Shown here: positions 2,216 to 45,319 of the stretch, piece by piece
How the letters are laid out: every line of letters starts with the position of its first letter
Position numbering within the stretch: position 1 is the stretch's first letter
Source: Fusobacteriaceae bacterium
GTDB taxonomy: Bacteria; Fusobacteriota; Fusobacteriia; Fusobacteriales; Fusobacteriaceae
Direction of reading: 5' to 3'
NCBI GenBank assembly: GCA_031272775.1
Contig: JAISTB010000031.1
Coordinates: forward strand, 1-48,031
Length of the DNA: 48,031 bases
Program-made: the position numbers and the translations under genes
The notes under the pieces: model-generated
Database searches by the model: none
Told to the model about the DNA's origin: nothing
What the model saw: the letters and a program-made list of their open reading frames with translations, nothing else

Positions 2216-5200
2216 CTACCGTAACTTCCAGTGGAAGCGGATTCCGCAGCTCAGATCGGTTTCTTGCGCGTTCTGTCTTCTGCCCAGCTCCACATCCAGC
2301 GTCACGCCGTAATGATCGCTCTTCTCCACGGTAAATCCCAGGCGTCCCTTGAGGATTCCCCTTTCTTTTTCAGGATTGAGAAGCTCGTCATAGTCCGTGC
2401 CGCTTCCCGCAAAGCGCACCCGGTTTGCGCGGTGATTTTCGCCGAAATCATAGGCCCAGGCGAGGGCGCCTTCCAATTTCACGGCGTATTGCCCGCCGAT
2501 ATGCGTCCGGCGCATCCCCCGGACGCCCACTTCGCCCAGTGCGCTCACGTAATCCCGGGCGTCCACTTCAAGAATCAGGGCGCTTTCCCCCAGGGCCCGC
2601 TCGCGGAAATGATCGCCCGCGCCGTAGCTGAGGTCAAGAGACGTGTAGAGGTCCAATTTTCCGTGGATACTCCTGAAGAGGGTATTTTCGAGGGTATTTA
2701 TCAGGCGCAGCTCGTAGCTGTTATAAGAGCTCTTATTTTTGTAAACTTGATCAAGCTCGAGGGTGCGCTCGGCCTCATGCCGGTACCAGCCCAGCTCCAC
2801 CCGGGAAAGAAGCCGCAGCCTGTCGTCGGCCCCGAAGGGTGTCAGTCGGTGCAGGCCGCCTCTCAGCGCGTAGATGTCCTCTTTGGATTTGTCGCCGTAC
2901 AGGGGCGCGTCGTCGAAGTCGAAGCGAGCGCCGCCGAAGCCCAGTGACCAGCCCCATTTGCCGCCGTAGCGGTATCCTTCTCTTTCTTTCATGTACAGCA
3001 GCCCGTGCACGCGGTAGTCATAGTCGTCGATGCCGTCTGTCCCGTCGCGGAACGCGCCCTGACCGTAGATCACGCTGAATTTGTCCGTATCGGCCGTGTC
3101 GTTGTAGGAATCAAACATTTCGGCAAATGAGCGGTCGAAGGCCTTTCGCGTGTGCAGCTCCCGGTTTTGGATCGTCGAGTAGATGTCGCCGCGGATCTCG
3201 CCCAGGAGCCGACCGCTTTCCCGTTCAAAGGCCGCCGTTCCCTGTGTGGCATCGATCCGGTCGAGCCGGTAATTAAGTTTTTTCAAGAGTTGCGCGTCTT
3301 TGGAGGTCCCGGTGGGATCCCGTTTCAAAAGGATGTCGGCGCCTTCCTCGATGGCCGTAAATCGCGGATCCTTCATCACAAGGGCATAGGGCTGCTTCCT
3401 CACGGTCAATGTGCCGTCGGGCTCGACCCAAGCCTCAAAGAGGGGGGAGGTCCCGATCGTAAGGGACGCCGCGGCCGTTCCCGGTGTGTCGGTCTCTGAC
3501 GCCGCTCCGGCGGGGCTTGCGATAAATTCGTCGACTGCCCATTCATAGCCGTTTCCGCTCAGGATGTAATCCGGCTCCAATTGAGCGGTTCCGCTGAGGC
3601 TCGCGGTCAGGAACATGGGGGCGGCGCGGTATTCGCTGAGAGCCAGTCTGAGCCCCTCGGCGACGATGGCTTCGGCCGCGATGGTCCCGGCTGTGACGAT
3701 GTTGCCTTCGAGGACGAGAGCTCCGCCTTCGGCGTGAATGCCGGTCGATTGGGCGTCGAGCAGGCGGATTTCGCCGTTATTGATGAATTCGGCGTTTCCC
3801 TTGGCAAAGATTCCGATGCCGCCGGCTTCCACGGTAATAAGGCCGTTGTTGGTAAATCGCGTTGTCGCCGCACTTTCGACGCCTTCGAGGTAGACGCCAA
3901 TCGCGTGTTCGCCGTTGACCTGAATCACGCCGGTTTCTGTATTTATACCGCTCGCGCCGTTTACGAGCCGGATGCCTACGGATTCCATACCATAGTACTC
4001 GCTGTTCGTCACGGATATTGTTTCGTAATTCCGAATCGTCACATTGTCGGCAGTTCCATTTCCTGCGGCATAAATTCCGATGGCGCCCATATCGACGGAA
4101 ATATTTGCGAAATTTTCAAGATTGACCTGATTGCCGCCGGAGTATTCTTCATTATTTATAAAAATGCCATAATTTCCTCTGCTTATGCTCCAATCCCCTG
4201 AAGTTGTAATTTTGCCACTGCTTGAAATCTTGTATACCTTTGCGATTGGCGCATTGTACATCCATTCCAATTTTCCGTCTCCGGCAAAATTGTAGTCTCC
4301 GTCGCGATCAAGATAAACCACAACCTGACCCGCGGCGCTTTTTTCTCCTTGCTCCTCTTTATTTACTATCATGTCAGTCGATGCTTGCCTTGTAAATTCG
4401 ACATCTATCGGTTCGTCATACCGGGGCGTACCGACATTGTCGGCAGAATTGTCGGGATTATTGGGATTGTCCGGAGTATCCGGATTATCCGGAATGCTTG
4501 GATTGTCCGGGGTATTGGGATTCTCATTGGGATTCTCATTGGGATTCTCATTGGGATTCTCATTGGGATTCTCATTGGGATTCTCATAAGGATTCTCATT
4601 GGGATTCTCATTGGGATTATTTTGTTCATTCGAATTATTCTGTTCATTCGAATTATTCTGTTCATTTGAATTATTCGGATCCTCATCCGTATCCTCATTG
4701 GGATTGTCCGGATCGTCTGGATCATTTGGATCGCCCGGTTCTTCAGGATCAACGCCGGGTTCTTCAGGGACAACGCCCGGTTCTTCGGGATCAGTTCCGG
4801 GTTCTTCTGGATTTTCAGGAACTATGCCCGGATCTACTGGATCTTCAGGATCTGTCGGATCATCCGGATCTTCTGGATTTACTGGATCATCAGGCTCTTC
4901 CGGATCTCCCGGACCAACGTTTGGATTTCCAGAATCATCCGAATCATCTTGATCTTCTGGATCTTCTGGATCTTCTGGATCTTCTGGATCTTCCGGATCT
5001 TCCGGATCTTCCGGATCTTCTGGTTCTTCCGGATCCACAAGCTCTTCCGGACCTTCAGGCTCAAGGCTGGATTCCCCCGGTTCCTCAGGATCCGATGGTT
5101 CTTCCCCCCCTACGTTGGGATTCTCCGATTCCTCAGGTTCGGAAGAACCTCCTCCGCCGGAAGGCGCCCCTCCCTCTTCGCCGGGCGTTTCGATCGCTCC

Positions 5201-5686
5201 TCCGGGCGGCCCAGTATCGGGCTTGACGCCGCCCGAGCCCCCCGGAGAGGCCGCTTCGCCCGATTTGTCCCCGGACGCTGCGGCCTGGGTCTGCGGGCCC
5301 CCAGTCTTCGCAGGCTCTTTGGCCGCCCCCTTGCCGCTTTTCTTGTTTTTCCCGCTTTTGCTGTAATAGCCCGTCATGAAAAACTGCCTGCTCTCAAAGC
5401 GGGGCTTCGCGTAAAAATCCCCCTTGCGGATCAGCTCGTCAAGTTCCAGTTGCGTTTGCGCCTTCCGCTTCCGGTTTTCTTCGATCAATTGTAAAATTTT
5501 CTCTTTTTCCCCCTGCACGGCCATGTCGTATGACGCGGCCGCCGCGGGGACGCTCTCCTCCTTTACCGCCTGCGTCGCCGCCGCAGGGCTTCCCGTCCAA
5601 AAAAATACCGCCAGACAACCTGCAATTGCCCATTTGCGCCAAAAAGAACTTCCGCCTTTCAGAATCGCGTCATGGTTTTTACTCAT
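2216..5686 (-). CDS. Autotransporter-type outer membrane protein/adhesin with acidic low-complexity repeat region, beta-helix passenger and C-terminal beta-barrel
   Basis: Signal peptide after internal M19 (WRKWAIAGCLAVFFWTGSPAAATQA). Passenger has GNGTADNVTIRN / NNGEIRL beta-helix-like repeats. The C-terminal ~280 aa show an alternating amphipathic pattern (YRYGGKWGWSLGFGGARFDFDD...GIRFHWKLR). The start is taken at M19, not at the ORF-track M1. Confidence 0.6.
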   Translation of the reverse strand: MSKNHDAILKGGSSFWRKWAIAGCLAVFFWTGSPAAATQAVKEESVPAAAASYDMAVQGEKEKILQLIEENRKRKAQTQLELDELIRKGDFYAKPRFESRQFFMTGYYSKSGKNKKSGKGAAKEPAKTGGPQTQAAASGDKSGEAASPGGSGGVKPDTGPPGGAIETPGEEGGAPSGGGGSSEPEESENPNVGGEEPSDPEEPGESSLEPEGPEELVDPEEPEDPEDPEDPEDPEDPEDPEDPEDQDDSDDSGNPNVGPGDPEEPDDPVNPEDPDDPTDPEDPVDPGIVPENPEEPGTDPEEPGVVPEEPGVDPEEPGDPNDPDDPDNPNEDTDEDPNNSNEQNNSNEQNNSNEQNNPNENPNENPYENPNENPNENPNENPNENPNENPNTPDNPSIPDNPDTPDNPNNPDNSADNVGTPRYDEPIDVEFTRQASTDMIVNKEEQGEKSAAGQVVVYLDRDGDYNFAGDGKLEWMYNAPIAKVYKISSSGKITTSGDWSISRGNYGIFINNEEYSGGNQVNLENFANISVDMGAIGIYAAGNGTADNVTIRNYETISVTNSEYYGMESVGIRLVNGASGINTETGVIQVNGEHAIGVYLEGVESAATTRFTNNGLITVEAGGIGIFAKGNAEFINNGEIRLLDAQSTGIHAEGGALVLEGNIVTAGTIAAEAIVAEGLRLALSEYRAAPMFLTASLSGTAQLEPDYILSGNGYEWAVDEFIASPAGAASETDTPGTAAASLTIGTSPLFEAWVEPDGTLTVRKQPYALVMKDPRFTAIEEGADILLKRDPTGTSKDAQLLKKLNYRLDRIDATQGTAAFERESGRLLGEIRGDIYSTIQNRELHTRKAFDRSFAEMFDSYNDTADTDKFSVIYGQGAFRDGTDGIDDYDYRVHGLLYMKEREGYRYGGKWGWSLGFGGARFDFDDAPLYGDKSKEDIYALRGGLHRLTPFGADDRLRLLSRVELGWYRHEAERTLELDQVYKNKSSYNSYELRLINTLENTLFRSIHGKLDLYTSLDLSYGAGDHFRERALGESALILEVDARDYVSALGEVGVRGMRRTHIGGQYAVKLEGALAWAYDFGENHRANRVRFAGSGTDYDELLNPEKERGILKGRLGFTVEKSDHYGVTLDVELGRRQNAQETDLSCGIRFHWKLR
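4517..4618 (-). repeat. 12-bp tandem repeat (gggattctcatt, about 8.5 copies) encoding (NENP)n inside the autotransporter
   Basis: Perfect in-frame tandem copies visible in the sequence. Confidence 0.8.
4622..4676 (-). repeat. 18-bp tandem repeat x3 encoding (NSNEQN)n inside the autotransporter
   Basis: ttgttcattcgaattattc repeated three times. Confidence 0.7.
4951..5031 (-). repeat. 9-bp tandem repeat (gatcttctg/gatcttccg, about 9 copies) encoding (EDP)n inside the autotransporter
   Basis: Direct tandem copies, in frame. Confidence 0.8.
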
Positions 5687-6078
5687 CGTTCCTCCATTCT
5701 TTTTTACCCATTTGCGCGGTTTTGTCCGCGCAATCGCCATGGTAGATTTTGTATTCCGTTGCTGTAGAGATTTATCGTGAAAAATCTATCTGAACATTTA
5801 TGTTTCAACAAAAAACAAAAAAACCGCCCGATTGATCTTCGCTTTTCCGCGGATTTTTCAACAAAAACAAAAAGTCCGCCTGAATAACGATCGCCTTATT
5901 GTGGAAACATTTTCGCCAAATGGATATTATTCACTATTATACCACGGACTCTGCCTTTTGTCACGCTATTTTTTTGTTTTTCTTCCGATTTTTGTCTTTT
6001 TGTTCCCCTCCAATAACACCAAAAAGCAATAATTCAGGACGGCGGCGTCGCCGAAATTTTTTTTGCTTTCCGAAAAAA

Positions 6079-6966: not shown

Positions 6967-7857
6967 TCAGGTTTGCGGCGCCCGCCGGTTCAGGATCCTG
7001 TCCCCGTATGTGAAGACAAACATGCCGACGAGGATCACGAGGCCGCCGATGACCGTGGAAAACTCGGGTTTTTCTCCGGCAATCAGAAAACCGAGGAGCG
7101 CCGTCGTAAAGGGCGGCACAAAGTTGTAATTGGCGACGGCCGTCGTCGTCTTGGATCGCTTGAAGGCCATGGACCAGGTCACATAGCCGATGAGGCTCGG
7201 GAAAATGGCCAAAACCAGCAGGATAAAAATCTGATTGGCCGGCGCGGCCCGGAGCTCGTTCAGGGCATTGGGCGCGGCGATTCCCATACAGACGGTCCCG
7301 ATCAGGATGCTGTAGGCCGTGGCGGGAAAGGCGTCGTAAGTCTCCAGAATTTTCCGCAGGAAGAGCGTCGAGACGGAGCCCGCCGTGCAGGCGAAAAGCA
7401 GCCAGAGCACGCCGGTATTGACGGAAATATCCGCCTTCAGAGCCGTTACGATAAATACGCCGGCAAATTCGATGCCCATGGCGGCGTACTGGATCAGTTT
7501 CAATTTTTCCCGGTAAAAGACCCTGACCAGAAGAGCCGTCAGTACGGGTCCCGTGGCGATAATCACGCTGACCGTGGCGGCCGTTACGGTCTTGGAGCCT
7601 TTGTTGAAGGCCATCATATAGACAAAATAACTCAATATTCCCTTACCCAGGAACCAGCCCCAATCTTTGGGCTTCGGCAACTTCTGTTTTGTCGCGATGA
7701 GCCCCGCGATCAGGAAAATCGAGGCGATCCCGAAACGCAGGAAGCCCAGCGAACGGGATGAGTAATAACGGAGCGCCAGCCGCGTAAACACATAGGAAAG
7801 CGACCAGAGCAAAACCGTAATAAACGCGAACACATGAAAATTATCCCTCCATCTCAT
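6967..7857 (-). CDS. EamA/DMT-family transporter
   Basis: 296 aa with about 10 predicted TM segments, as expected for two EamA half-domains. Confidence 0.75.
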   Translation of the reverse strand: MRWRDNFHVFAFITVLLWSLSYVFTRLALRYYSSRSLGFLRFGIASIFLIAGLIATKQKLPKPKDWGWFLGKGILSYFVYMMAFNKGSKTVTAATVSVIIATGPVLTALLVRVFYREKLKLIQYAAMGIEFAGVFIVTALKADISVNTGVLWLLFACTAGSVSTLFLRKILETYDAFPATAYSILIGTVCMGIAAPNALNELRAAPANQIFILLVLAIFPSLIGYVTWSMAFKRSKTTTAVANYNFVPPFTTALLGFLIAGEKPEFSTVIGGLVILVGMFVFTYGDRILNRRAPQT

Positions 7858-7875
7858 TTTCCATCCCCCCGCGCG

Positions 7876-8431: not shown

Positions 8432-9985
8432 TTATAGCATTTTTTGCCTCATACAAAAAGAGAAATCTTTCAATCTCCGCAAAAACTCAGGAATCGCGTC
8501 GGCGATTTCCCCGGCCAGCGGGGCGTATTCCGTCATGGTCTCCGAAAGAAGCTCGCCGGCCCGTCCGTGGAGCCAGGCCCCCAGGGCCGCGGCGTGAAAG
8601 ATGTCCATGCCCTGAGCCCCGAGTCCCGCCACAAGGCCCGTCAACACATCGCCGCTCCCGCCCTTGGCGAGGGCCGTGTTTCCGCTGGGATTTAGGTAAA
8701 TCTCGCCGTCGGGCCGGGCGATCACGGTCCGGTGGTCCTTGAGGAGCGTCGCGGCGCGATATTTTTCGGCGAATGCTTTGGCCGTGGTCAGAGGGGAGGC
8801 CAGAATTTCCGTCACGGGCTTTCCGGTGAGCCTCGACATTTCTCCGGGATGGGGCGTAATGAGCGGAATTTTTTGGCAATCCCGCAGGATACGCGGATCT
8901 TCTTGGATCAGGTTCAGCCCGTCGGCGTCAAGGACAATCTGCCCGGAAAACCGCCGGAGCAGTTTTCGCAAGGCGCGCCGGATCGCTGGGCTTTGGCCGA
9001 GGCCGGGTCCGGCCGCGAGGACGTCCGCGCTTGCCAGGATGTTCTCGGCTTTTTCTCCGAAGTGAATCGTCGCGCCCGCCTCATAAGGCAACGTGATTGC
9101 TTCAGGAATAAGGATTTGCAGCGTACTTGCGATCTCTTCCGGGACGAGGCAGTACACGAGTCCAGCGCCTGCCCGGTAGGCGCTTTTGGCCGCAAGATAA
9201 GCGGCCCCCGCCATTTCCCGACTGCCCGCAAAGAGAAGGACCTTTCCGTAGCTCCCCTTGTTGCTGCGGGGTTTCCGCGAAGGCAACAGCGCCGCCGCTT
9301 CCTTCGGCGTCAGCATACGGTAAGGGCTTTGGACGGCCTCCGCGACATCCCGAGGGATTCCGATATCGGCCACATGGAGACGGCCGCAGCAGGCGGGGCC
9401 TTTGCCGGTCAAAAGGCTCAGCTTGGGGAGGGCAAAGGTCACCGTTTCATCGGCAATTACCGCGGCGGCGCCTTGATTTTCGTCCGCGTCTCCGACCCCT
9501 GAGGGGATATCGACGCTGATCACATAGCGGGCGTATTTGTTGACGCTTTCGATGACGCCGCGGATCGGTTCCCTGACATCCCCGCGAATACCGGTCCCGA
9601 GGAGGGCGTCCACCACGATGTCCGCTTTCCCGACGAGCTCATCAAAGCCTCCGGCTTTGTATTCTCCGACGGAAAAAAGCGCCTCCAGCCTGCGGTAATT
9701 GCTCAAGGCGTCGCCTTCCAAAGCATCGGGTTTTTCCGTAAAGACAAGTTGCGGCGCGTAGCCCGCCGCAAAGAGCTGTCTCGCCACGGCAAAGCCGTCG
9801 CCGCCGTTGTTTCCTTTTCCGCAGAGTACGAGAACCCGCTTCCAGCCATGTTCCCGCAGCCGCCGAATCACGAGATCCGTCACGGCCCGGGCGGCCCTTT
9901 CCATAAGCGTCAGACCCGGGACGCCGTATTCCTCTATGGTTATTTTGTCTATGGCGCGCATCTGCGCGCCCGTCACGATTTTCAT
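8432..9985 (-). CDS. nnr: Bifunctional NAD(P)H-hydrate repair enzyme (YjeF_N epimerase + YjeF_C ADP-dependent dehydratase)
   Basis: 517 aa. N-terminus LVLCGKGNNGGDGFAVARQL (YjeF_N). C-terminus GSYGKVLLFAGS...GGSGDVLTG (carbohydrate-kinase-like YjeF_C). Confidence 0.85.
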   Translation of the reverse strand: MKIVTGAQMRAIDKITIEEYGVPGLTLMERAARAVTDLVIRRLREHGWKRVLVLCGKGNNGGDGFAVARQLFAAGYAPQLVFTEKPDALEGDALSNYRRLEALFSVGEYKAGGFDELVGKADIVVDALLGTGIRGDVREPIRGVIESVNKYARYVISVDIPSGVGDADENQGAAAVIADETVTFALPKLSLLTGKGPACCGRLHVADIGIPRDVAEAVQSPYRMLTPKEAAALLPSRKPRSNKGSYGKVLLFAGSREMAGAAYLAAKSAYRAGAGLVYCLVPEEIASTLQILIPEAITLPYEAGATIHFGEKAENILASADVLAAGPGLGQSPAIRRALRKLLRRFSGQIVLDADGLNLIQEDPRILRDCQKIPLITPHPGEMSRLTGKPVTEILASPLTTAKAFAEKYRAATLLKDHRTVIARPDGEIYLNPSGNTALAKGGSGDVLTGLVAGLGAQGMDIFHAAALGAWLHGRAGELLSETMTEYAPLAGEIADAIPEFLRRLKDFSFCMRQKML

Positions 9986-17972: not shown

Positions 17973-18839
17973 TTATTGCTGCCCTTTGACGCCCGCCGCC
18001 CGGGTCTTCAGATCCTCGAGATCCGATTTCAGCGCGTCGACCTTTTCCTGTTCCTTCGTCGCGGCCTGGGCCTTTTTGTCATCGCCCGAGAACTTGTTCT
18101 CAACTTTTTTCAGGGTCTTGGCGATAAAGGGTTCCTTTTCCTGCTTCTTGGGCCGCGCGGCGTAAATGGCCTTGAGCTCGGCCTGATAGGCGGCCTGGGC
18201 CGAGGGCGAAGCCGGTTTCACGGCATATTTGCGCAGATTGGGGAAATTCTTGTCCAGCGTCTTGTTCCATTCGTCGACTTTGGCCTTGTGCAGGGACAGA
18301 TAGCCGTCGGCGTTGGAGCTGAAGCGGATTTCCTTGATGATGTCGCCGTATTCGAGCTTGCGGATGATCTCGCTGTCCTGCTCTCCTTCGGTCTCGCCGA
18401 ATACCGTATGGCGGCCGTTGAGCCAGTCGGCGGGGGCGAGGGTCACGAAATACTGCGATCCGCCCGTATTGGGTCCCGCGTTTGCCATGGCCAGCATACC
18501 GGGCTGGAAGAAATCAAGCCAGTTCACGATCTCGTCGGGGATGCTGTAGCCGGGTCCGCCCTTTCCGGTGCCGGTGGGGTCTCCCGCCTGGAACACGAAG
18601 CCGTCAATGGCCCGGTGGATCCTGTTGTTGTTGTAAAACCCGCGTTTGGCCAGGTTGATGAAATTGGCCACCGTAATCGGCGCCGCTTCGGGATAGAGAT
18701 AAAAACTTACCTCTCCCTGGGTTGTCACAAACGTACAGCGTATGTCGTTATAGCGGAGCGACTGCTTTTTCGGCTTGCCGAAGGCTACGGCGCCGAATAC
18801 GAAGAGAAGCAGTATGGTCAATTTGAATATTCTTTTCAT
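17973..18839 (-). CDS. ppiB: Secreted cyclophilin-type peptidyl-prolyl cis-trans isomerase with Lys-rich C-terminal extension
   Basis: Signal peptide MKRIFKLTILLLFVFGAVAFG after a CAGGAGGA RBS. Cyclophilin core FHRAIDGFVFQAGDP...GGSQYFVTL. Start moved to M9. Confidence 0.85.
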   Translation of the reverse strand: MKRIFKLTILLLFVFGAVAFGKPKKQSLRYNDIRCTFVTTQGEVSFYLYPEAAPITVANFINLAKRGFYNNNRIHRAIDGFVFQAGDPTGTGKGGPGYSIPDEIVNWLDFFQPGMLAMANAGPNTGGSQYFVTLAPADWLNGRHTVFGETEGEQDSEIIRKLEYGDIIKEIRFSSNADGYLSLHKAKVDEWNKTLDKNFPNLRKYAVKPASPSAQAAYQAELKAIYAARPKKQEKEPFIAKTLKKVENKFSGDDKKAQAATKEQEKVDALKSDLEDLKTRAAGVKGQQ

Positions 18840-18958
18840 GTTTTTGGTCCTCCTGACAATCATGGTCTTGGTAAAGTGGAATCTCTTCCCTGTGCTCTAC
18901 CCGAATTATATCATGTTTTTCCTTTTGACACAACTATAATTCTTGTCTTTTGGGGATT

Positions 18959-20017
18959 TTATTTCTGATTTGCCTCGCTCTCCTTTTTTGCCGCTCTCTT
19001 TGCTCTTTCTATCATAAAAAGAACATCTGCGTTCTGATTGATGCAATCCACCTTGATTTCAGGGTATTCTCTCCGGAAAATGCGAAAAACTTCATCCGCA
19101 AAGCCCTGCCCAATCATTTTTACGTCTTTAAAATCCAACACAACTTCCTGAAAGTCTTCAATTCTGCGTAAAATTCTCCTGGCTTGCGACCTTGCCATCA
19201 AGACGTCCTCATATTCCTGGGCAAGTCGGATGATGATTTCCGTTTTGCTAAAATCATAGCTTTCTTCGTCAGTGAATTTGTCAAAGATTTCTTTTATGGG
19301 AACAGTCGTGTTTTTCTTTATGGCAAAATAAATTACGCTGCCTTGCACGACTGAGTCAATCAAAGGGTATTCTTCGATTGCTCCAGAAGTTTCACTCAGA
19401 ATGGCTTTTTCGGAACCGGAATAAATGATAAACAAATCGGATGCCTTGGAACTGAAAAAGATCCCCTCACCGGAATGCCTGTGAGGCGAAGAAGTCAGTT
19501 TACCTTTTTTTAGCTCAAATACCACCTCGCCTGCGTTGGCAAGACAATGATCTTTGATAATTTTGTTGAAAATACCGACCCCGTCATCTGCAATAAAAAT
19601 ATTGATACAAAAATAATCTTCGAAATAGCTTATGTCAAGACGGTTCCCGCCGGAATGCTCTATGGCGTTATTGACCATTTCAGAAAAAATGTATAAGATT
19701 TTTTGTTTGACTAAATCCGTTTGTTCTGACAGCAAGGGGAGGATCGCATTTTTATAGATGGCGTCTTCAGACAAGGCGTTCAGATTTTGATACGAAAAAT
19801 GGACATTTTTGAGATCTTTCAGCGCATATTGCTTATTTGTTTTTTGCTTCCCGGCAATAATGAATCCATCGTTTTCCAATTCTATAAGATACGTTCGGAT
19901 TGTCTGACGGCTGATGCCAAATTCCGCTTCAGCTTCAATATACGGCGAACGCTTGTGGTAGATTGCGCTCAGCAAAAATGCTTTGATTTCTGATTTCATT
20001 TTTCGTGATATGCTCAT
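18959..20017 (-). CDS. Fusion protein: N-terminal winged HTH + GHKL (histidine-kinase-like / RsbW-SpoIIAB-like) ATPase + C-terminal STAS-like (DUF4325-like) domain. Low-GC gene.
   Basis: wHTH ISRQTIRTYLIELENDGFI. GHKL N-box/G-box EMVNNAIEHSGG ... ADDGVGIF. C-terminal EVVLDFKDVKMIGQGFADEVFR resembles STAS-like DUF4325. Local GC is about 38-40% against about 60% in the flanks. Confidence 0.6.
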   Translation of the reverse strand: MSISRKMKSEIKAFLLSAIYHKRSPYIEAEAEFGISRQTIRTYLIELENDGFIIAGKQKTNKQYALKDLKNVHFSYQNLNALSEDAIYKNAILPLLSEQTDLVKQKILYIFSEMVNNAIEHSGGNRLDISYFEDYFCINIFIADDGVGIFNKIIKDHCLANAGEVVFELKKGKLTSSPHRHSGEGIFFSSKASDLFIIYSGSEKAILSETSGAIEEYPLIDSVVQGSVIYFAIKKNTTVPIKEIFDKFTDEESYDFSKTEIIIRLAQEYEDVLMARSQARRILRRIEDFQEVVLDFKDVKMIGQGFADEVFRIFRREYPEIKVDCINQNADVLFMIERAKRAAKKESEANQK

Positions 20018-20035
20018 ATTGGCCTCCTTTTCTGT

Positions 20036-20064
20036 ATTTTAGCAGATCCAGGCGGTATTGTAAA
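20036..20064 (-). promoter_or_regulatory. Sigma70-like promoter for the low-GC gene (TTTACA-17-TAAAAT)
   Basis: Read on the minus strand, upstream of the AAAGGAGG RBS and the ATG at 20017. Confidence 0.4.
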
Positions 20065-20103
20065 GATAAAAATATTTATTTTTACTTGTTCCCCACGCCC
20101 CCC

Positions 20104-20877
20104 TCAATTGATAAAGTGCTTCTGCAGCTTTTTCGTCGAAAGGGTCAGGACCACGGAGATCCCGATCAGGAGCACCGACAGCGAATTGATGGCCGGATTG
20201 ACGCCCAGGCGCACCATGGAAAATATCCTGAGCGGCAACGTCGACGAGCCCGGTCCCGAGACAAAAAATGTCGTCACAAAATCATCGAAGGAGAGCGTCA
20301 CGGAAATGAGAAAACCCGACACGATCCCGGGTAGGAGCGCCGGAATCACCACTTTCCCAAGGGTCTGAAGCTCCGAAGCCCCGAGGTCGTAGGCGGCCTC
20401 GATAATCGAGTAATCGAATTCATCCATCCGCGACATAATCAAAAACAGCACATAGGGAATGTTGAAGGTCGTATGGGCAATGAAGATCGTCGTGAGCCCG
20501 AGGCTGAAACGGATCGTGGCGAACATGATCAAGAGCGAGACGCCAAGGATGATTTCCGGGATCATCAGCGGCACATAGGACATGACCCGGATCAGTTTTT
20601 TTCCTGGGAAATCGTGCCACTGGATGGCGATAGCCCCTAAAGTCCCGATGGTCGTCGAGATCAAAGCCGAGGTCGCCGCGATCACGACGCTCCAGCGAAA
20701 GGACGTCCAGATCTCGGCGGAATAGACAAAGAGCTCCCGGTACCATTTGAGGGAGAATCCGCTCCAGACCATGGCCCGGCCTTCATTGAAGGAATAGACC
20801 ACGAGACAGACCAGCGGCAGATAGAAAAAGAGCATGGTCAGGATAAATAGGATTAAAGATGTCCGTCTTTTATTCAT
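20104..20877 (-). CDS. potC: Spermidine/putrescine ABC transporter permease PotC
   Basis: True start MNKRRTSLILF. EAA-like loop EAAYDLGAS. Six TM helices. Confidence 0.85.
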   Translation of the reverse strand: MNKRRTSLILFILTMLFFYLPLVCLVVYSFNEGRAMVWSGFSLKWYRELFVYSAEIWTSFRWSVVIAATSALISTTIGTLGAIAIQWHDFPGKKLIRVMSYVPLMIPEIILGVSLLIMFATIRFSLGLTTIFIAHTTFNIPYVLFLIMSRMDEFDYSIIEAAYDLGASELQTLGKVVIPALLPGIVSGFLISVTLSFDDFVTTFFVSGPGSSTLPLRIFSMVRLGVNPAINSLSVLLIGISVVLTLSTKKLQKHFIN

Positions 20878-21727
20878 CGACCGTCGCCTCCGCCTCCGCC
20901 GCGCTCTTCCGCGAAATTCGCATAAAAAGATAGATCGTAATGCCCGTGACGACAATAAGGCCGCCGGAAATGACCGAGGCCAGGGGCCAGTTGCGGGTCG
21001 TCAGCAGATGCTGCGCGATGAGGTTCCCCAGCATGATGCTCTGCGTTCCTCCGACGAGCCTCGGGACCGCGTAGGATCCGAGACTGGGAATAAAAGTAAA
21101 CAAGACGGCCGTAATGACGCCGGCCTTGATATTCGGCAAAAAAACCTTGAAAAAAGCCTGTCCGTTGGTCATGCCGAGATCCCGGGCCGCCTCGATCAAC
21201 GTAAAGTCAAATTTTTCGATTACCGCGTAGAGCGGCAGGATCGCGAAGGGGAGGTCCGTATAAACGGATATCACAATGACGGCCGCCATGTTGTACAACA
21301 GTTGCAAGGGCTCTTTGATGAGCCCGCTTTTGAGGAGAAGACTGTTGACGAGGCCGTTATTCCCGAGGATGGCCACCCAGGAATAAATCCGGATCAAAAA
21401 ATTTGTCCAGAAGGGAATGATAATGAGAAAAAGAAATTCCTGCTTGTGATTGCTCCGGGCGATGAAATAGGCCGAGGGAATCGCGAGAACCACGGTAAAA
21501 AACGTGATGAAAATGGAAATCAGAATCGTCCGGCCCAGCACAATCAAAAAAACGTGGTCCTTGAAGACCGAGAAGGCCTGCAGGGAAAATTCCAGCTCCA
21601 CGCCGCCGTAGAGTCCCTTTTTCAAAAACGCGTACACCAGGACGACGGCCATGGGGATCATAAAAAAGATCACAAGCCAAACCGTCAGCGGCAGCGCGTA
21701 AAATATCCCGTATTTATCTTTATTCAC
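20870..21727 (-). CDS. potB: Spermidine/putrescine ABC transporter permease PotB
   Basis: GTG start overlaps the potA stop. EAARDLGMTNGQAFFKV loop. Confidence 0.85.
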   Translation of the reverse strand: MNKDKYGIFYALPLTVWLVIFFMIPMAVVLVYAFLKKGLYGGVELEFSLQAFSVFKDHVFLIVLGRTILISIFITFFTVVLAIPSAYFIARSNHKQEFLFLIIIPFWTNFLIRIYSWVAILGNNGLVNSLLLKSGLIKEPLQLLYNMAAVIVISVYTDLPFAILPLYAVIEKFDFTLIEAARDLGMTNGQAFFKVFLPNIKAGVITAVLFTFIPSLGSYAVPRLVGGTQSIMLGNLIAQHLLTTRNWPLASVISGGLIVVTGITIYLFMRISRKSAAEAEATVDE

Positions 21728-22847
21728 GGCCCGTCACCTCCACAAGGAAGCCATCGTCGGCGTCCCAGTAGACCCAGGCTTCTTCGTCCCACCATACGAC
21801 GTCTTCGTCTTCCTCGTCAAAATAAATGGCGTGCTGCTTGAAGATCTTGAAGGGCATTTCCTTGTCCCCTTCCATCCAGACGAAGTATTTGCTCTGAAAG
21901 CCTGAGTAAATGACCTCGTGGACGAAGGCCCGGGCCACGTTGAGGATCTTGTCGGTCTGCGGGGGACTCATCTTGGAAAGTTTCAATTTTTCAGGCCGGA
22001 TCGACACCCGGACCCGATCCCCCACCCGGACGGGCTTGTCCATTTCTATGGTGATCTCGCCGAGGGTCTTGTTCTTGAGCCGGGCAAAGCGTTCGTCAAT
22101 GAGGGACACAATTTCCCCCTCAAAGAAATTGTTCTCACCCAAAAAGTCCGCAACGAACGAATCCGAGGGCGCTTCATAGACTTCGGCAGGCGTCCCCACC
22201 TGGAGGACGTTTCCCTCGTTCATGACCGCGATCCGGTCGGAAATCGAAAGGGCCTCCTGCTGGTCGTGAGTGATGAAGATAAACGTGATCCCCACTTCGT
22301 CATGAATATTGTCGATTTCGATCAGGAGATTCTGCCTGAGCTTGGCGTCCAGGGCCGAGAGCGGCTCGTCCAGCAGCAGGACCCCGGGTTTGTTGATCAG
22401 GGCCCGGGCGATGGCGACCCGCTGTTGCTGCCCGCCAGAGAGCTGGTTGGGCTTTTTGTTCACATGCTCGTTGAGGCCGACGAGATCGATGTATTTTCTC
22501 ACTTCCTCATCGATTTCCCTGCGGCCGAGCTTCTTGATCCGCAGGGCGAAAGCGATGTTTTCATAGACCGTCAGGTGTGGAAACAACGCGTATTTTTGAA
22601 AGATCGTATTGACATTGCGCCGGTTGGGCGGCAAACCCAGGATGTTTTCGTTCCCGAGGTAGATGGCCCCCGAGTCGGGCGTGATAAAACCGGCGATCAT
22701 CCGCAAAAGCGTCGTCTTCCCACAGCCCGAAGGGCCCAAAATCGTAAAAAATTCCCCGTCCTCAATCGTCAGGTTGATGTCGTTCAAAACCTTTACCCCG
22801 TCAAAACTCTTGTTCACATGCTCGATTCTGATGTCGTTTTTTCCCAA
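21720..22847 (-). CDS. potA: Spermidine/putrescine ABC transporter ATP-binding protein PotA
   Basis: GPSGCGKTT Walker [17 protein letters not shown]-terminal TOBE-like regulatory domain. TTG start after GAGGAGG. Confidence 0.85.
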
Positions 22848-40927: not shown

Positions 40928-41689
40928 CTATCGTTTGGGTAAAAATCGGAATGTCTTTGTAAACCAGACTTTGATGTTACGGTTTTGATAATACACCGGA
41001 CGGAACTTCCACCGGCGGAGCGCCGCGGTCACTTCGTCGTCAAATCCGAGTCCCTTGTTTCCTGAAAGAATCAGAATCTGCTCCACATTCCCGGACAAAC
41101 CGACCAGAAATTTCGCCGTGACGGAAACCGTTCCGGAAATACGCATTTGCTCGGCTCTCGCCGGATAAGCCGGCTCATGCTGACGCAGGATTTGATAGGC
41201 GATGCCTTCGGGAGAATGCGCGACGGGAATCCCGTCCTGTCCCACGCTGATATTCCGGTTTCCCGAAAAACCCGCTTCCGTGGGCGGCGCGGGGCGCTTT
41301 TTTTCCGGAACGCGCTTCCGCGTTTTGTTCTCGGTTAATTTGGGCTCCGGTTTCCGCTCGGGTTTGACTTTGCTTGGCTCAGGCCGTGGCTCGGGTTCAG
41401 GCTTCGGCTTGGGTTCAGACTGTGGTTCGGGTTCAGGTATCGGCTCGGGTTCAGGCTGCGGCTCAGGTTCAGGTATCGGCTCGGGTTCAAGTCGCGGCTC
41501 GGGTTCAGGTATCGGCCCGGGCGCCGCAAGGGGTTCCATAACAGCCTCCGATCCGGGATCTTCCACGGCTTCTCGAAGCGTCACGGGAATCCGGTCCGGT
41601 TTTTCCGCGTGTATCCGAAAATATTCCGGTATTCCCGGACGCAGAAACAAAAGCGCGTGAACCAACAATGAGATCAGGATGTATTTCAT
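40928..41689 (-). CDS. tonB: TonB-family energy transducer with proline-rich (EPEP) spacer
   Basis: N-terminal TM helix, (PEPEPx)n linker, C-terminal TonB domain. Confidence 0.7.
   Translation of the reverse strand: MKYILISLLVHALLFLRPGIPEYFRIHAEKPDRIPVTLREAVEDPGSEAVMEPLAAPGPIPEPEPRLEPEPIPEPEPQPEPEPIPEPEPQSEPKPKPEPEPRPEPSKVKPERKPEPKLTENKTRKRVPEKKRPAPPTEAGFSGNRNISVGQDGIPVAHSPEGIAYQILRQHEPAYPARAEQMRISGTVSVTAKFLVGLSGNVEQILILSGNKGLGFDDEVTAALRRWKFRPVYYQNRNIKVWFTKTFRFLPKR
41384..41520 (-). repeat. Imperfect ~18/36-bp tandem repeats encoding the EPEP linker of TonB
   Basis: ggttcaggtatcggctcgggttcaggctgcggctca repeated with minor variation. Confidence 0.6.
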
Positions 41690-41710
41690 AAAAAATCCCT
41701 CCGGAGAAGC

Positions 41711-41838
41711 TTATTTTTGCACGGTCAGGGAAAGCGAAGGAAAAAGGCGGCGCGCTCGAGGATTACGGCGAGCGCGACGACAGACAGGACAAGCAGTACC
41801 CACATCAGATTTCCGCCCGCTTTGATATAATAAAGCAT
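41711..41838 (-). pseudogene. ExbB/TolQ/MotA-like N-terminal fragment (37 codons), probable remnant of exbB upstream of tonB
   Basis: Minus-strand ORF MLYYIKAGGNLMWVLLVLSVVALAVILERAAFFLRFP*. The GG..M...LL.S..ALAxxxER pattern matches ExbB/TolQ helix-1. No exbD is present. Confidence 0.3.
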
Positions 41839-42150
41839 TCTTTCCTCCTTATCGAAAGGACTCCCGGTATGGTCAGGATAGTTTTTTCATTTTAACCCTG
41901 ATGTTCTCCGGAAACGTTGCATCAGTTCGGAAAAATAGGTTTTCGCGTTCTTTTCATCATCTATTTTTTTGTGTTGCCTGTCAATGTAGAATACGCAATC
42001 AGTACTTTCAACGATCAATTCCTCCTGTTTCTGTTTTGACTTTCAAAATAAATGTCAATCTATTTGCATTATATCAAAAATATTTCTTTTGTCAAATAAT
42101 TTTTTGTTTAAAATTCGCTATTACTGACTTTGCGGGAAAAAATTATTTTC

Positions 42151-42179
42151 TTGACAACGCAGCGCAAAAATATTATAAT
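42151..42179 (+). promoter_or_regulatory. Consensus sigma70 promoter (TTGACA-17-TATAAT) for the haem-uptake locus
   Basis: Exact consensus -35 and -10 hexamers with 17-nt spacer, about 145 nt upstream of the radical-SAM gene start. Confidence 0.55.
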
Positions 42180-42182
42180 AAC

Positions 42183-42218
42183 TGATATGATAATTAATTT
42201 GATTTTATGATTATTTAA
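42183..42218 (+). promoter_or_regulatory. AT-rich Fur-box-like operator candidate overlapping/downstream of the -10
   Basis: TGATATGATAATTAATTTGATTTTATGATTATTTAATA contains GATAAT/ATGATTAT half-site-like hexamers. The location fits iron/haem regulation. Confidence 0.3.
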
Positions 42219-42323
42219 TAAATAAAATATTTATCAATAAAATTATTTGGTTTTTTCTTTTACAGCGCAGAAATAGTGAATTCTTGTCTGTTTCATACCG
42301 ATAAGGGAGGCGGAATACAGAAC

Positions 42324-43174
42324 ATGGACAACATATTGACACTGTGGCCCAAACGGTTGAAATCACATCATGACGCGGCAAGTCTTGTCGAAAAATATCA
42401 AAAAGCGGAAAAAGCGACGGAAGCGGATTTTTCAGCGAAACTGGAAGAACGACCGGAAAATAACCCAAAGGCCATGTATGTGCATGTTCCGTGGTGCGAC
42501 CGGATTTGTTCCTTTTGCAATATGAACCGGAAGCAGGCTGACGCCGCGTTGACAGCGTATCCGGCCCGGCTTGCGGCCGAATTGGAAAAATACGGAAAAA
42601 CCAGATACTTGCGGGAAAGCCGTTTTGAAGCGATCTTTTTTGGAGGCGGGACGCCGACTGTTCTTTCGACGGAGCAACTTGCGACGGTTTTGTCCGCTTT
42701 GCGCAAAAATGTACATCTGGCGGAGGATTGCGAATTTACTTTCGAAAGTACGCTGCACAACCTGCAGGAAGATAAAATCGGACTTCTCACGCAATACGGC
42801 GTCAACCGGATCAGCGTCGGGATTCAGACATTTTCCGAAAGAGGTCGGCAATTCTATAACCGGACGTACAACCGTCAGCAGGCCCTCGACAAACTGAGGA
42901 CATTGCAAAAGCTCTTTCACGGGGATGTCTGTGTGGATATCATTTATAACTTTCCGGGCTCATGCAGTTTCCGGAATTTTCAAAAAGCCGGATCGAAACG
43001 CTTCTGACAGAGGAGGAATCCGTCGTCTACCGGAAAAAGATGAAACAGTATCAGAACGCGGGGCTTCTCAAAGAGAGTAAAACTTCCTATGATCTGACTT
43101 CCGCCGGTGTATTCTGGGGGAACAATCTGATCGTTGATACGATTACGGAAATTTTGGAAAAGACATTGAAATGA
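42324..43174 (+). pseudogene. HemN/HemW/HutW-family radical SAM protein, short and frameshifted (frame switch near 42950-42961)
   Basis: Start MDNILTLW after an AAGGGAGG RBS. CxxxCxxC motif CDRICSFC. GGGTPT. Frame 1 stops at 43007. The HemN_C-like tail (…NAGLLKESKTSYDLTSAGVFWGNNLIVD…) continues in another frame (42962..43174), which opens immediately after a TAA. Confidence 0.55.
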
Positions 43175-43195
43175 CTGCGACAGAAGGAGAGGGAC

Positions 43196-45319
43196 ATGCG
43201 TTCTAAAGAATTGTTGATTTTAAGTGTTATCTTGTGTGGGATGGCTTACGGAAGCCAAAATGTGGAACTTGAGGACAGCGTTATCTACTCGACCACCGGA
43301 TTTGCGGAAAGCGTCCGGGATGAAGCGAGTACCCCGGTGATCATCACAAAGCGGGAAATAGAAGAAAAACGCTATAAAACCGCCATTGAAGCCCTGAAAG
43401 ACGTTCCGTCCGTCAATGTGCAGTACCAGATGGGAATGCCTGTCATCGATATGCGGGGTCAGGGAATGAAAGCGAAGGACAATGTGCAGGTTCTCATCGA
43501 CGGCGTTCCGGTAAATTCCCTGGAGACTTCCATGGTCGCCAGCGTCATCAATACAATTTCGGTGGACAGTATCGAGCGCATTGAAGTCATTCCGGGCGGC
43601 GGCGCGGTTCTGTACGGCAGCGGGACCTCAGGAGGGGTCGTAAACATCATCACGAAAAAAGGAACCGGATCGCGGGCATCCGCCGGATACAGTTACGGCG
43701 ACGTTCTCGGCGGCAAAGCCGATGTTTCGGCCGGATATACCTTTGCCGACCGCCTTGATTTGGATCTGGCCTATACGAAAAATAACATCAAAGGATACCG
43801 GGATTACAGCCGGGACGAATCGGATTATTTCCTCGGAAGTCTGCGGTACAGGATATCGGAGGATCAGCGCATCAGCCTGAAATACACCAAATACAAAAAT
43901 GAGATGCAGTACCCGGGTTCGCTGACCGATGTCCAACTCAGAGAAGACAGAAGACAAAGTTCGCTGTATCCCGGAGAGGAATATCTGATTTTGTCGGATA
44001 AAGACGAAATTATGCTTGATTATCAAAACAAGCTGAGCGATAAACTGGAATTGAACCTCCTGGGGTTTTCTCAAAAAATTGAAATCACGATGAAGGATAA
44101 CTATAAAATACCCGGGGAGTCCTTTGATATGGAAGCGCACTTTGACACAAAAAAGAACGGGCTCAAGGCCAAATTAAAGTATACTTATACGGAAAAAGGA
44201 GCCCTGATTTTCGGTGTGGATTATATAGACGACAAGCTTGACAGAACCATGGAACAGCTGATAAAGGGCGTCACAACGGTAGGACCTATGGTTGTCGCCA
44301 ATGATGTCTTCACCGATACGGAGATCTATCTGAAAAAAAAGACCTGGAGCGCTTTTCTGCTCAACACGATTCGAGTCAATGATTTTGAATTGATCCAGGG
44401 CGTCCGTTATGAAAAGGCGAGATATCATATTGATCGCTCGTCGATGTCCCATGTCCACGTGGAAGGCAGAATGGGGCCGATGATTATACCCATGGCGGAT
44501 ACGACAAGCCTCTATCCGATTGTCGCAAAACGCGATGAAGACAACTTTGCGTTGGAGCTGGCCGCCAATTATCTCTATTCGGAAACCGGAAAACTGTATT
44601 TGAAGTATGAACGTGGATTTTCCTCTCCCGCGCCCGCTTTGCTGACAGATCGCGATGCCACGCCGTCTTACGGCGGAAGCGGAAATTATTTCCTGAACGA
44701 TCTGAAATCGGAAACATTCAACACGGTGGAATTGGGATTCAAGGACTATTTCGGACCGACAACCCTCACCGCGGCAGTCTTTTATACGTTGACGAACGAC
44801 GAGATCCGCTCTTCCGGAATGAGCAGAACTTCGCGCATCGTCAATTACAATCTTGCCAAAACGGAACGTTTCGGCTTTGAAATTTCGGCGGAACAACGGG
44901 TGAACCGGTTCACATTCCGGGAAACCTATCATTTCGTGAACGCGAAAATCAAAGACGGGATCGACGGTTATTCCGGACTGGATGTTTCCGGAAAGAGAAT
45001 TGCCCTCGTTCCGCAGCATAAATTTTCCGTCGGCGCCAATGTCCGGATTCTTCCGAACCTGAGTCTGGACGCGGACGTTGTCTATGCGGGCAATTATTAT
45101 CTGAACGACGGCAATACCGGCGGAAAGAAAAACAAGCGCCTGCTTGTGAATTCGCGAATCAATTGGGAACCTAAGACAGGCCTTGTCGTCTATGCCGGCG
45201 TGAACAATCTCTTTGATGAAAAATATTCCAATTCCGTGGATTACGATCCGGCCGGCGGGTATTCATATGATCCCGCCTACGGCAGAAACTGGTATGTGGG
45301 ATTCAAATATCAGTTCTGA
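43196..45319 (+). CDS. TonB-dependent outer membrane receptor (haem/siderophore type)
   Basis: Signal peptide, plug domain, 22-strand-like barrel, terminal ...NWYVGFKYQF. Confidence 0.9.
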   Translation: MRSKELLILSVILCGMAYGSQNVELEDSVIYSTTGFAESVRDEASTPVIITKREIEEKRYKTAIEALKDVPSVNVQYQMGMPVIDMRGQGMKAKDNVQVLIDGVPVNSLETSMVASVINTISVDSIERIEVIPGGGAVLYGSGTSGGVVNIITKKGTGSRASAGYSYGDVLGGKADVSAGYTFADRLDLDLAYTKNNIKGYRDYSRDESDYFLGSLRYRISEDQRISLKYTKYKNEMQYPGSLTDVQLREDRRQSSLYPGEEYLILSDKDEIMLDYQNKLSDKLELNLLGFSQKIEITMKDNYKIPGESFDMEAHFDTKKNGLKAKLKYTYTEKGALIFGVDYIDDKLDRTMEQLIKGVTTVGPMVVANDVFTDTEIYLKKKTWSAFLLNTIRVNDFELIQGVRYEKARYHIDRSSMSHVHVEGRMGPMIIPMADTTSLYPIVAKRDEDNFALELAANYLYSETGKLYLKYERGFSSPAPALLTDRDATPSYGGSGNYFLNDLKSETFNTVELGFKDYFGPTTLTAAVFYTLTNDEIRSSGMSRTSRIVNYNLAKTERFGFEISAEQRVNRFTFRETYHFVNAKIKDGIDGYSGLDVSGKRIALVPQHKFSVGANVRILPNLSLDADVVYAGNYYLNDGNTGGKKNKRLLVNSRINWEPKTGLVVYAGVNNLFDEKYSNSVDYDPAGGYSYDPAYGRNWYVGFKYQF

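Follow-up and report, generated by a model that had tools for sequence, protein, structure and literature searches.

The potC–ppi insertion site

The window analysed here is the whole of a 48,031-nucleotide stretch of DNA from a Fusobacteriaceae bacterium (NCBI GenBank assembly GCA_031272775.1, contig JAISTB010000031.1, positions 1 to 48,031 of the forward strand). A potA-potB-potC cluster lies on its minus strand, and 86 nt after potC begins an intact open reading frame (ORF) with an ATG start. The ORF encodes a 352-aa protein that combines an N-terminal winged helix-turn-helix (wHTH), a GHKL ATPase/kinase domain of the SpoIIAB/RsbW type and a C-terminal STAS-like domain (DUF4325). An earlier interpretation of this DNA, made from the letters alone (hereafter the sequence-only reading), had placed the gene directly after potABC, and the Pfam and NCBIfam assignments of potA, potB, and potC confirm this position. 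It is the only gene of a low-GC islet (Table 1), which begins with the first base past the potC stop codon and ends where the sequence again becomes homologous to the empty-site spacer of relatives. This low-GC segment, ~1.15 kb long, was acquired horizontally as a single-gene cassette and integrated at the 3′ end of potC.

A scan for PotC over one genome per species returned 41 loci, the closest of which belong to Fusobacteriaceae (termite-gut metagenome-assembled genomes, Fusobacterium, and Cetobacterium), and the proteins of the window were compared with all of these loci by tblastn. Twenty-four Fusobacteriaceae loci extend past potC (L002–L024 and L026). In every one of them potA-potB-potC is followed within ≤180 nt by a cyclophilin gene (ppi), and in none is the islet gene found at the potC–ppi site. 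The cyclophilins are true orthologues, with identities to the window protein of 77% in L002 and 67% in L006. Because the window, on either side of the low-GC segment, can be aligned with the empty-site spacer of L002, the islet gene represents an insertion of ~1152 nt in the potC–ppi spacer. An element upstream of ppi, TAGTTGT...ATGATATAATTC(G/A)GGTAGA, is common to the window and the islet-free L002. The sequence-only reading had called for the flanks to be compared with those of related genomes, and this comparison, with potC and ppi adjacent and no native copy of the gene in 24/24, bears out the horizontal acquisition that it had proposed.

The islet gene also differs from its surroundings in composition. 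Its GC content is 0.398, and 0.442 at third codon positions (GC3), against 0.52–0.58 and 0.70–0.76, respectively, in the flanking genes that were compared (recJ, a gene of the metallo-beta-lactamase fold, ppi, potC, potB, and potA). The drop amounts to 12–18 points in GC and ~28 points in GC3; the lower GC described by the sequence-only reading therefore holds, while its figure of ~20 points in GC was too large. The host is itself an unusually GC-rich member of the Fusobacteriaceae (GC 0.54, GC3 0.70–0.76). Among the relatives with a syntenic potABC–ppi arrangement, GC is ~0.30 in L006 and ~0.50 in L002, a very large compositional shift inside one family.

Upstream of the islet gene, two promoter-like hexamers (TTTACA at 20064–20059 and TAAAAT at 20041–20036) are separated by 17 nt, with TGn ahead of the second, and match the consensus at 10 of 12 positions. 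Both this site and the ribosome-binding site are present as the sequence-only reading had described them, the promoter as a consensus match only. They are kept in the window and in a sister strain represented by contig L001, where the promoter-like site takes the form TTTACA-17-TAGAAT.

The mode of entry can be read from this sister contig, a JGI metagenome contig that carries the sole close homologue (97% amino acid identity) together with the same downstream genes. The islet in L001 is bracketed by a 27-nt direct repeat, CAGAAGCATTTTATCAATTGA(GG/NN)AGGG, which consists of the terminal 21 nt of potC (with the stop codon) and 6 further nucleotides. The two copies, at 1–27 and 1265–1291 of the contig, are 93% identical and lie 1264 nt apart. 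The left copy now ends a functional potC, and the right copy and the sequence beyond it align with the uninterrupted potC end and spacer of L002. It follows from this arrangement that the islet came by target-duplicating integration. In L001, the gene is separated from the right copy by ~105 nt, in which a short hairpin, CATTACCGCAGTAATG, is found. At the 18952/18951 junction of the window, ~133 nt are deleted relative to L001, and the deletion has taken both the right repeat and the hairpin. Integration thus duplicated ~27 nt of potC, of which both copies survive in the sister strain and the window has lost the distal one. In the window itself no convincing direct or inverted repeats of the kind expected of transposon ends were found, and only the sister contig still shows the scar. 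No integron attC-like signatures were seen by eye downstream of the gene in L001. The locus accordingly shows an empty site in relatives, an atypical composition, and an insertion scar, as expected of a horizontally acquired islet, and the proposal of a one-gene islet is upheld both by the absence of the gene from all 24 relatives and by the flanking duplication. One further feature of L001 is that its recJ (3347–5708) is split into three ORFs, probably by sequencing frameshifts; recJ is intact (812 aa) in the window.

The copies of the gene in the window and in the sister contig differ by 15.5 synonymous and 10.5 non-synonymous changes, giving a ratio of non-synonymous to synonymous substitution rates (dN/dS) of 0.17. 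This ratio indicates that the islet gene, which is intact, is under purifying selection.

A comparable arrangement was detected in the Anaerolineales. In one genome of this order (L044), a homologue of 38% identity (41% by local BLASTP) forms a single-gene islet bracketed by a 266-nt direct repeat with 92% identity, at 7609–7874 and 9057–9322 (also in L045). This repeat is a duplication of the 5′ end of the neighbouring phosphoglucomutase gene (pgm), of which a 99-aa fragment is left upstream. The Anaerolineales islet is an independent parallel to the insertion at potC. The series of empty site, occupied site, and scar documents the entry of single genes into housekeeping loci. Across the family, flanking repeats were found for 5 of 45 family genes and 5 of 199 controls (p 0.02, uncorrected for relatedness), an enrichment too weak for a general claim of family-wide flanking repeats, which we have dropped.

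Table 1. Coordinates in the window of the islet, its gene and protein domains, and the neighbouring genes
Feature	Position	Strand	Evidence or remark
Inserted low-GC islet, ~1152 nt	18952..20103	-	Alignment to the L002 empty site and to sister contig L001; composition
Coding sequence, 352-aa wHTH / SpoIIAB-RsbW-type GHKL / DUF4325 (STAS-like) protein	18959..20017	-	ORF, Pfam, AlphaFold2 (AF2), fold matches, dN/dS
N-terminal wHTH, residues ~1-76	19790..20017	-	Nearly invariant ISRQT at residues 35-39
GHKL ATPase/kinase domain, residues ~80-236	19310..19780	-	N-box, G1, lid, and G2 motifs
C-terminal STAS-like (DUF4325) domain, residues ~255-352	18962..19255	-	R276-S277 motif; G303-Q304 at the canonical phospho-Ser position
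Promoter-like site of the islet, TTTACA-17-TGnTAAAAT	20036..20064	-	Consensus match only
Shine-Dalgarno sequence AAAGGAGG	20023..20030	-	5 nt ahead of the ATG
potC 3′ end CAGAAGCACTTTATCAATTGAGGGGGG, left copy of the 27-nt direct repeat	20098..20124	-	Right copy deleted in the window
potA	21720-22847	-	Host operon, outside the islet; Pfam and NCBIfam; TIGR01187 cutoff reached by PotA
potB	20870-21727	-	Host operon, outside the islet; Pfam and NCBIfam
potC	20104-20955	-	Host operon, outside the islet; Pfam and NCBIfam
ppi, cyclophilin-type peptidyl-prolyl isomerase gene	17973..18863	-	Native downstream neighbour of potC in all relatives
Conserved ppi upstream element TTGTGT-17-TATAAT	18905..18933	-	Intact downstream of the insertion

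The islet protein and its family

An AF2 model of the islet protein built on 24 homologues reached a pLDDT of 83.8 and a pTM of 0.78. A Foldseek search with it against the PDB placed SpoIIAB at the top (E 6e-6, TM 0.76 on the target), followed by RsbW and UsfX, and also matched wHTH and RsbV/STAS folds; the model and these matches together confirm the three domains at the level of fold, the C-terminal one being a STAS fold. A fold search of BFVD gave single-domain matches only. Among sequence models, DUF4325 (PF14213) matches residues 278–332 well above its gathering cutoff (52.7 against 23 bits, E 3.4e-14), several weak Pfam HTH families match at residues 22–68, and the GHKL region (residues 104–201) stays below the Pfam gathering thresholds of HATPase_c (19.8 against 26.4 bits) and HATPase_c_2 (18.1 against 27.4 bits). 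By these scores the GHKL domain is divergent in sequence. An NCBIfam scan of the 352-aa protein returned nothing significant. The architecture of wHTH, GHKL, and STAS-like domains advanced by the sequence-only reading is thus supported by the AF2 model, by Foldseek, and by the DUF4325 match.

The motifs of the Bergerat fold are complete. The N-box motif, EMVNNAIEHSGG, occupies residues 113–124 (E113/N116/N117/H121) and the G-box DDGVGIF residues 144–150 (G1, D144xGxG148), both as quoted earlier from the sequence; they are followed by the lid (KGKLT175) and G2 (H181-S-G183-E-G185), so that the N-box Asn, the DxGxG of G1, and the GxG of G2 are all present. Conservation was measured across 141 diverse representatives of the family. 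E113, N116, N117, H121, D144, G146, G148, G183, and G185 are 98–100% conserved, and H181 in G2, T175 in the lid, T259, and G303-Q304-x-F306-A-D-E are essentially invariant. The motif S275-R276-S277-Q-A is likewise essentially invariant, with S-R-S in 98% of the family.

The sequence-only reading regarded the C-terminal domain as the substrate of the fused kinase. The best PDB sequence match of this domain is VapS (9z7o), with an E value of 0.07 both for the single sequence and for a 41-sequence profile. In both alignments the phosphorylated serine of VapS, S48, falls on Q304 (numbering verified for the His-tag offset). When strand 3 and helix 2 are set in ungapped register with SpoIIAA (paired segment VVLDFKDVKMIGQGFADEVFRIF; SpoIIAA sequence verified against 1AUZ), S58 also falls on Q304. 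Using hhalign, the C-terminal profile gave no alignment with SpoIIAA, and classical STAS profiles do not align, so VapS and secondary structure are the basis for the mapping of the site. Among the 141 representatives, position 304 is occupied by Q in 130 (92%), by P in 8, and by R in 3, but never by S or T, and position 305 is A or G. The domain therefore lacks the phosphorylatable Ser/Thr that marks the start of helix 2 in anti-sigma-factor antagonists, and phosphorylation at the canonical site would not be possible. Of the claim of a kinase fused to its substrate, the two domains stand, and the substrate role is weakened by the residue at position 304.

A C-terminal profile search for stand-alone DUF4325 proteins that bear the serine recovered only family fragments or 5′-truncated copies, all of them with G-Q-A. 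The truncated copies (L118–L120; P0357 and ~120 similar) are entries of 95–160 aa in which residues ~203–341 are left. Their frequent location at the ends of contigs suggests that these loci often decay or are broken in assembly.

This large and uncharacterised family is uniform in architecture. The 90% database contains >7000 homologues of ~340 aa, whose source labels read only "DUF4325 / STAS-like domain-containing protein". At 50% identity (E≤1e-30) they form 617 clusters, which extend from Fusobacterium to Anaerolineae and include many prophages. A literature search found nothing that treats the wHTH-GHKL-DUF4325 family, which agrees with the earlier description of such proteins as poorly characterised.

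Family proteins are encoded on 58 IMG/VR viral contigs, and in most of these the GC of the gene lies below that of the contig (e.g., 0.38 vs. 0.57, 0.31 vs. 0.51, and 0.29 vs. 0.44). Chromosomal loci behave likewise, with a gene GC of 0.37 vs. 0.51 in Anaerolineales and 0.21 vs. 0.25 in Fusobacterium. Within three genes on each side in the viral contigs, the downstream neighbours include small and large terminases, portal, integrase, invertase, and endolysin genes, while repressors, regulators, integrases, and tail proteins can be found upstream. One homologue of 47% identity adjoins a CI-like S24 repressor in a prophage, another is situated after a tail-fibre/amidase/MazE block, and the nearest non-sister homologue (51% identical) precedes a gene for a YobI-type ATPase. 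The gene is frequently found in certain slots of temperate phages, namely beside the terminase, beside a repressor or integrase, and after tail or lysis genes. Clustering of the neighbours within the same distance in 54 viral loci (47 non-redundant) yielded only phage core genes and no conserved partner. Given the low relative GC, the phage neighbours, and the lack of a conserved partner, the family behaves as a solitary, frequently transferred accessory ("moron"-type) gene of temperate phages.

Repeats around the gene were also observed in several other members of the family. Inverted repeats of 24–33 nt closely bracket the gene in L054–L056 (direct in L053), near tail-fibre genes, and DNA-invertase matches occur among the pooled downstream neighbours of the viral homologues. 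Inverted repeats of 22–24 nt are found in L047 and L048 and one of 49 nt in L067, and a 58-nt direct repeat in L109. In L060, the homologue is bracketed by 346-nt inverted copies with 99% identity, which may be insertion sequence elements.

Comparison with known switches and weighing of explanations

Recent work has shown that anti-phage operons and a toxin are under the control of switching by GHKL kinases and STAS proteins (CapKS and VapKSC; PMC13373217). CapK, an HTH-STAS-GHKL protein, is switched on by single-stranded DNA (ssDNA) and phosphorylates the repressor CapS at S54 (Chambers et al., EMBO J 2026, PMC13373217). It is always followed by capS, which encodes a STAS-wHTH protein, and lies upstream of an immune operon (PMC13373217). 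VapK phosphorylates the DUF4325-like antitoxin VapS, and the PIN toxin is thereby released (PMC13373217). In both CapK (HTH-STAS-GHKL) and VapK (STAS-GHKL), a STAS domain that is not the substrate forms a predicted ssDNA groove together with the GHKL domain (PMC13373217). DUF4325 genes have also been reported to be coupled to PIN.4 nucleases (PMC5499597).

The islet protein has in common with CapK/CapS and VapK/VapS/VapC a SpoIIAB-like GHKL domain, STAS-type domains, an HTH, and phage-related or accessory contexts. It differs from CapK and VapK in the order of its domains, wHTH-GHKL-STAS, and in being encoded by one solitary gene, and its counterpart of the phosphorylated serines of CapS (S54) and VapS (S48) is a Gln. 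Against CapK, with sequences of CapK and CapS taken from the source data of PMC13373217, hhalign aligned 61 columns covering the core from the N-box to G1 (probability 44%, E 2e-4), which falls short of full-length homology; against CapS it aligned a 29-column wHTH stretch at a probability of 4%, which is not meaningful. No capS is located beside the islet gene, whose neighbours are the cyclophilin gene downstream and potC upstream, and no PIN gene or separate STAS gene of a VapKSC operon is found beside the islet gene or the examined homologues. Since domain order, partner genes, and acceptor Ser all differ, the islet protein is not a member of the CapK or VapK families. The family packs similar parts into one solitary polypeptide, in another order and without the acceptor serine.

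The folds of the islet protein are those of SpoIIAB-SpoIIAA and RsbW-RsbV of Bacillus. In these modules, two small proteins control a sigma factor through a phosphorylatable Ser and are reset by a PP2C phosphatase, whereas the islet protein is a single polypeptide with a wHTH and has no acceptor Ser, sigma-factor gene, or phosphatase gene. A precedent for the fusion of a kinase to a STAS domain is Rv1364c of M. tuberculosis (PDB 3ke6), with the order PAS-PP2C-RsbW-STAS; it contains PAS and PP2C domains, which the islet protein lacks, and is without a wHTH. Stand-alone DUF4325 proteins are ~100 aa long and work with a separate kinase and toxin, and their coupling to PIN.4 matches VapS-VapC. The islet domain, by comparison, is fused behind a kinase-like domain and carries the motifs (S)-R-S-Q-A and G-Q-(A/G)-F-A-D-E. 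The islet resembles phage "morons" in its own promoter-like site, in the hairpin after the gene (seen in the sister contig), in a GC below that of the context in nearly all loci, and in the position of family members between functional prophage modules. Unlike these, the window copy lies outside any prophage, as a lone gene in a housekeeping spacer.

We propose that the protein acts as an autonomous ATP-gated intramolecular switch, and that its gene is a single-gene cassette from the temperate-phage gene pool; the chances that both parts are right appear to us evenly balanced. The protein would be a self-contained ATP-dependent partner switch in one polypeptide. Its GHKL domain, in which all nucleotide-binding residues are conserved, would bind ATP, and the tethered STAS-like domain would dock on it as SpoIIAA does on SpoIIAB. 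Because the canonical acceptor Ser position is Gln, the STAS-like domain would serve as a non-phosphorylatable pseudo-substrate or latch and not as a classical substrate. The non-phosphorylatable S58A form of SpoIIAA reportedly forms long-lived complexes with SpoIIAB. Opening and closing of the latch would depend on the nucleotide state or on a trigger, nucleic acid for example (as for CapK/VapK), and the change would alter the oligomerisation or dimerisation of the protein and nucleic-acid binding by the wHTH. An accessory regulatory or immunity function drawn from the temperate-phage gene pool is most likely. If this is how the protein works, partner switching would be broadened to include a format of one protein, and the protein would be a compact candidate, easy to test, for a part in phage-host conflict or prophage regulation. 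A bolder form of the proposal, which we consider rather unlikely, would see in it a new autonomous single-protein immunity/sensor module of that gene pool. Here a Gln-STAS latch on the GHKL domain would be opened by nucleotide state or nucleic acid, with the wHTH as output, and the module would travel as a ~1.2–1.4-kb cassette that duplicates the ends of housekeeping genes (27 nt of potC, 266 nt of pgm).

Several observations weigh against the proposed switch or against its origin in phages. The literature search returned no experiment on any member of the family. A tblastn search of the cultured phages in INPHARED and of the plasmids in PLSDB gave no match, so the link to phages comes only from IMG/VR and metagenome contigs. 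The gene has a single fixed location in Fusobacterium species, flanked by holA and a META-domain gene, which is also compatible with an ordinary host regulator. Sites resembling the promoter of the islet gene number 5 in the region and 3.2 ± 1.8 in shuffled sequences, and for this reason we treat the islet promoter as no more than a match to the consensus. Residue 275, a Ser in 98% of the family, is Ala in the window protein and its sister (A-R-S). At the start of helix 1, the invariant R276-S277 might be a phospho-acceptor that has been displaced, which would make the STAS-like domain a true substrate after all. Evidence for a role in defence is also sparse. A scan of the 352-aa protein against PADLOC-DB v2.0.0 gave no significant match, the best (E 0.008; SoFic, Csa3, and CasR) being confined to the wHTH region. 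Only 3 of 263 neighbour proteins in the viral contigs (5 model hits) reach E≤1e-10 against PADLOC: a type II restriction endonuclease, a TnpB/Cas12f-like protein, and a capH-like protein. At most one of these, the restriction endonuclease, is a bona fide defence gene. We have therefore set aside the association with defence islands, which the sequence-only reading had entertained.

Two alternatives accept the GHKL domain as an active kinase. It could be a Ser/Thr kinase that phosphorylates its own STAS-like domain, a switch in cis as in Rv1364c, whose STAS domain is autophosphorylated on Ser; release of the domain would then lead to output through the wHTH. The fully conserved catalytic and ATP-binding residues would suit this explanation, the nearest folds are serine kinases (RsbW, SpoIIAB, and the RsbW domain of Rv1364c), and the invariant R276/S277 at the N-terminus of helix 1, T175, and T259 could be non-canonical acceptors. 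It is nevertheless rather unlikely, as the acceptor position is Q304 in 130/141 and never S/T, residue 305 is A or G, classical STAS profiles fail to align with the domain, and no PP2C phosphatase domain or neighbouring gene was found for a reset. The kinase could instead act in trans, as an orphan sensor of the CapK/VapK kind in which the internal STAS-like domain is the sensor surface (e.g., for ssDNA) and the substrate, phosphorylated for exclusion or regulation, is encoded elsewhere or by a phage. The non-substrate STAS domains of CapK and VapK with their predicted ssDNA groove, the presence of all three domain types of CapK, the alignment of the N-box–G1 core, and VapS as the PDB sequence that the C-terminal domain matches best speak for such a kinase. 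The different domain order, the absence of capS, vapS, vapC, or any other conserved neighbour, and a similarity to CapK limited to 61 columns at 44% probability count against it. SpoIIAB-type kinases, to our knowledge, act only on STAS partners, which we also count against an orphan kinase, and we regard this explanation as quite unlikely.

The remaining explanations would do without a phage-derived switch. The protein could be an ordinary one-component transcription factor of the host that regulates ppi or potABC, with a low GC due to the amino acid composition of the family. A wHTH joined to sensor-like domains, the fixed chromosomal position in several Fusobacterium species, and little co-occurrence with known defence genes would all be in keeping with a host regulator. 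Yet the site is empty in 24/24 relatives and duplication scars remain, GC3, which is independent of amino acid composition, lies 28 points below that of the neighbours, the neighbours are wholly different between lineages, and many copies are found inside prophages; a host regulator is thus improbable. That the gene is a remnant without function, left to decay after the loss of an integrative element, could be suspected from the loss of one flanking repeat and ~133 nt in the window, from the 5′-truncated remnants of the family elsewhere, and from Ala at 275 in place of the family Ser. That the ORF is intact with all other invariant residues present, that dN/dS against the sister copy is 0.17, and that promoter-like site and ribosome-binding site are kept in both strains make this highly unlikely. 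The least credible explanation is the one raised by the sequence-only reading, which took the position after potC as that expected for potD and suggested that the gene had possibly replaced it; the same holds for any functional tie to polyamine uptake. Only the position after potC and the absence of a potD-like solute-binding-protein gene among the scanned large ORFs of the window point that way. A potD-like gene is missing from the post-potC position in all 24 Fusobacteriaceae loci, where ppi directly follows potC, the ppi upstream element is intact in the window, no solute-binding domain was found in the 352-aa protein that would place it with PotD, and its homologues have unrelated neighbours. 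We have accordingly rejected the replacement of potD and the tie to polyamine uptake, and a function of the islet gene unrelated to polyamine transport is most likely.

Other features of the window

A second low-GC patch (~0.40) occupies positions 1–2000 of the window and contains a cluster of the defence or toxin-antitoxin type, with all genes on the minus strand. It comprises an N-terminal fragment of hsdM (189–500), a Fic-motif protein (HAFGEGNTR) with a C-terminal wHTH (537–1163), a HepT-like ORF (1227–1562), and an MntA-type antitoxin (1555–1839). A 1174-aa protein with long acidic PEDPED and NPNENPNE repeat tracts is encoded at 2216–5740 on the same strand, and a GC dip at 4001–5000 coincides with these repeats.

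Towards the other end of the window, GC falls to 0.41–0.50 at 41500–45319. This region contains a HutW/ChuW-like radical SAM ORF of 243 aa, set against a model of 419 positions, which may be truncated or frameshifted. It is followed by a TonB-dependent receptor gene at 43196–45319, and the two may belong to an acquired or decaying locus for haem uptake.

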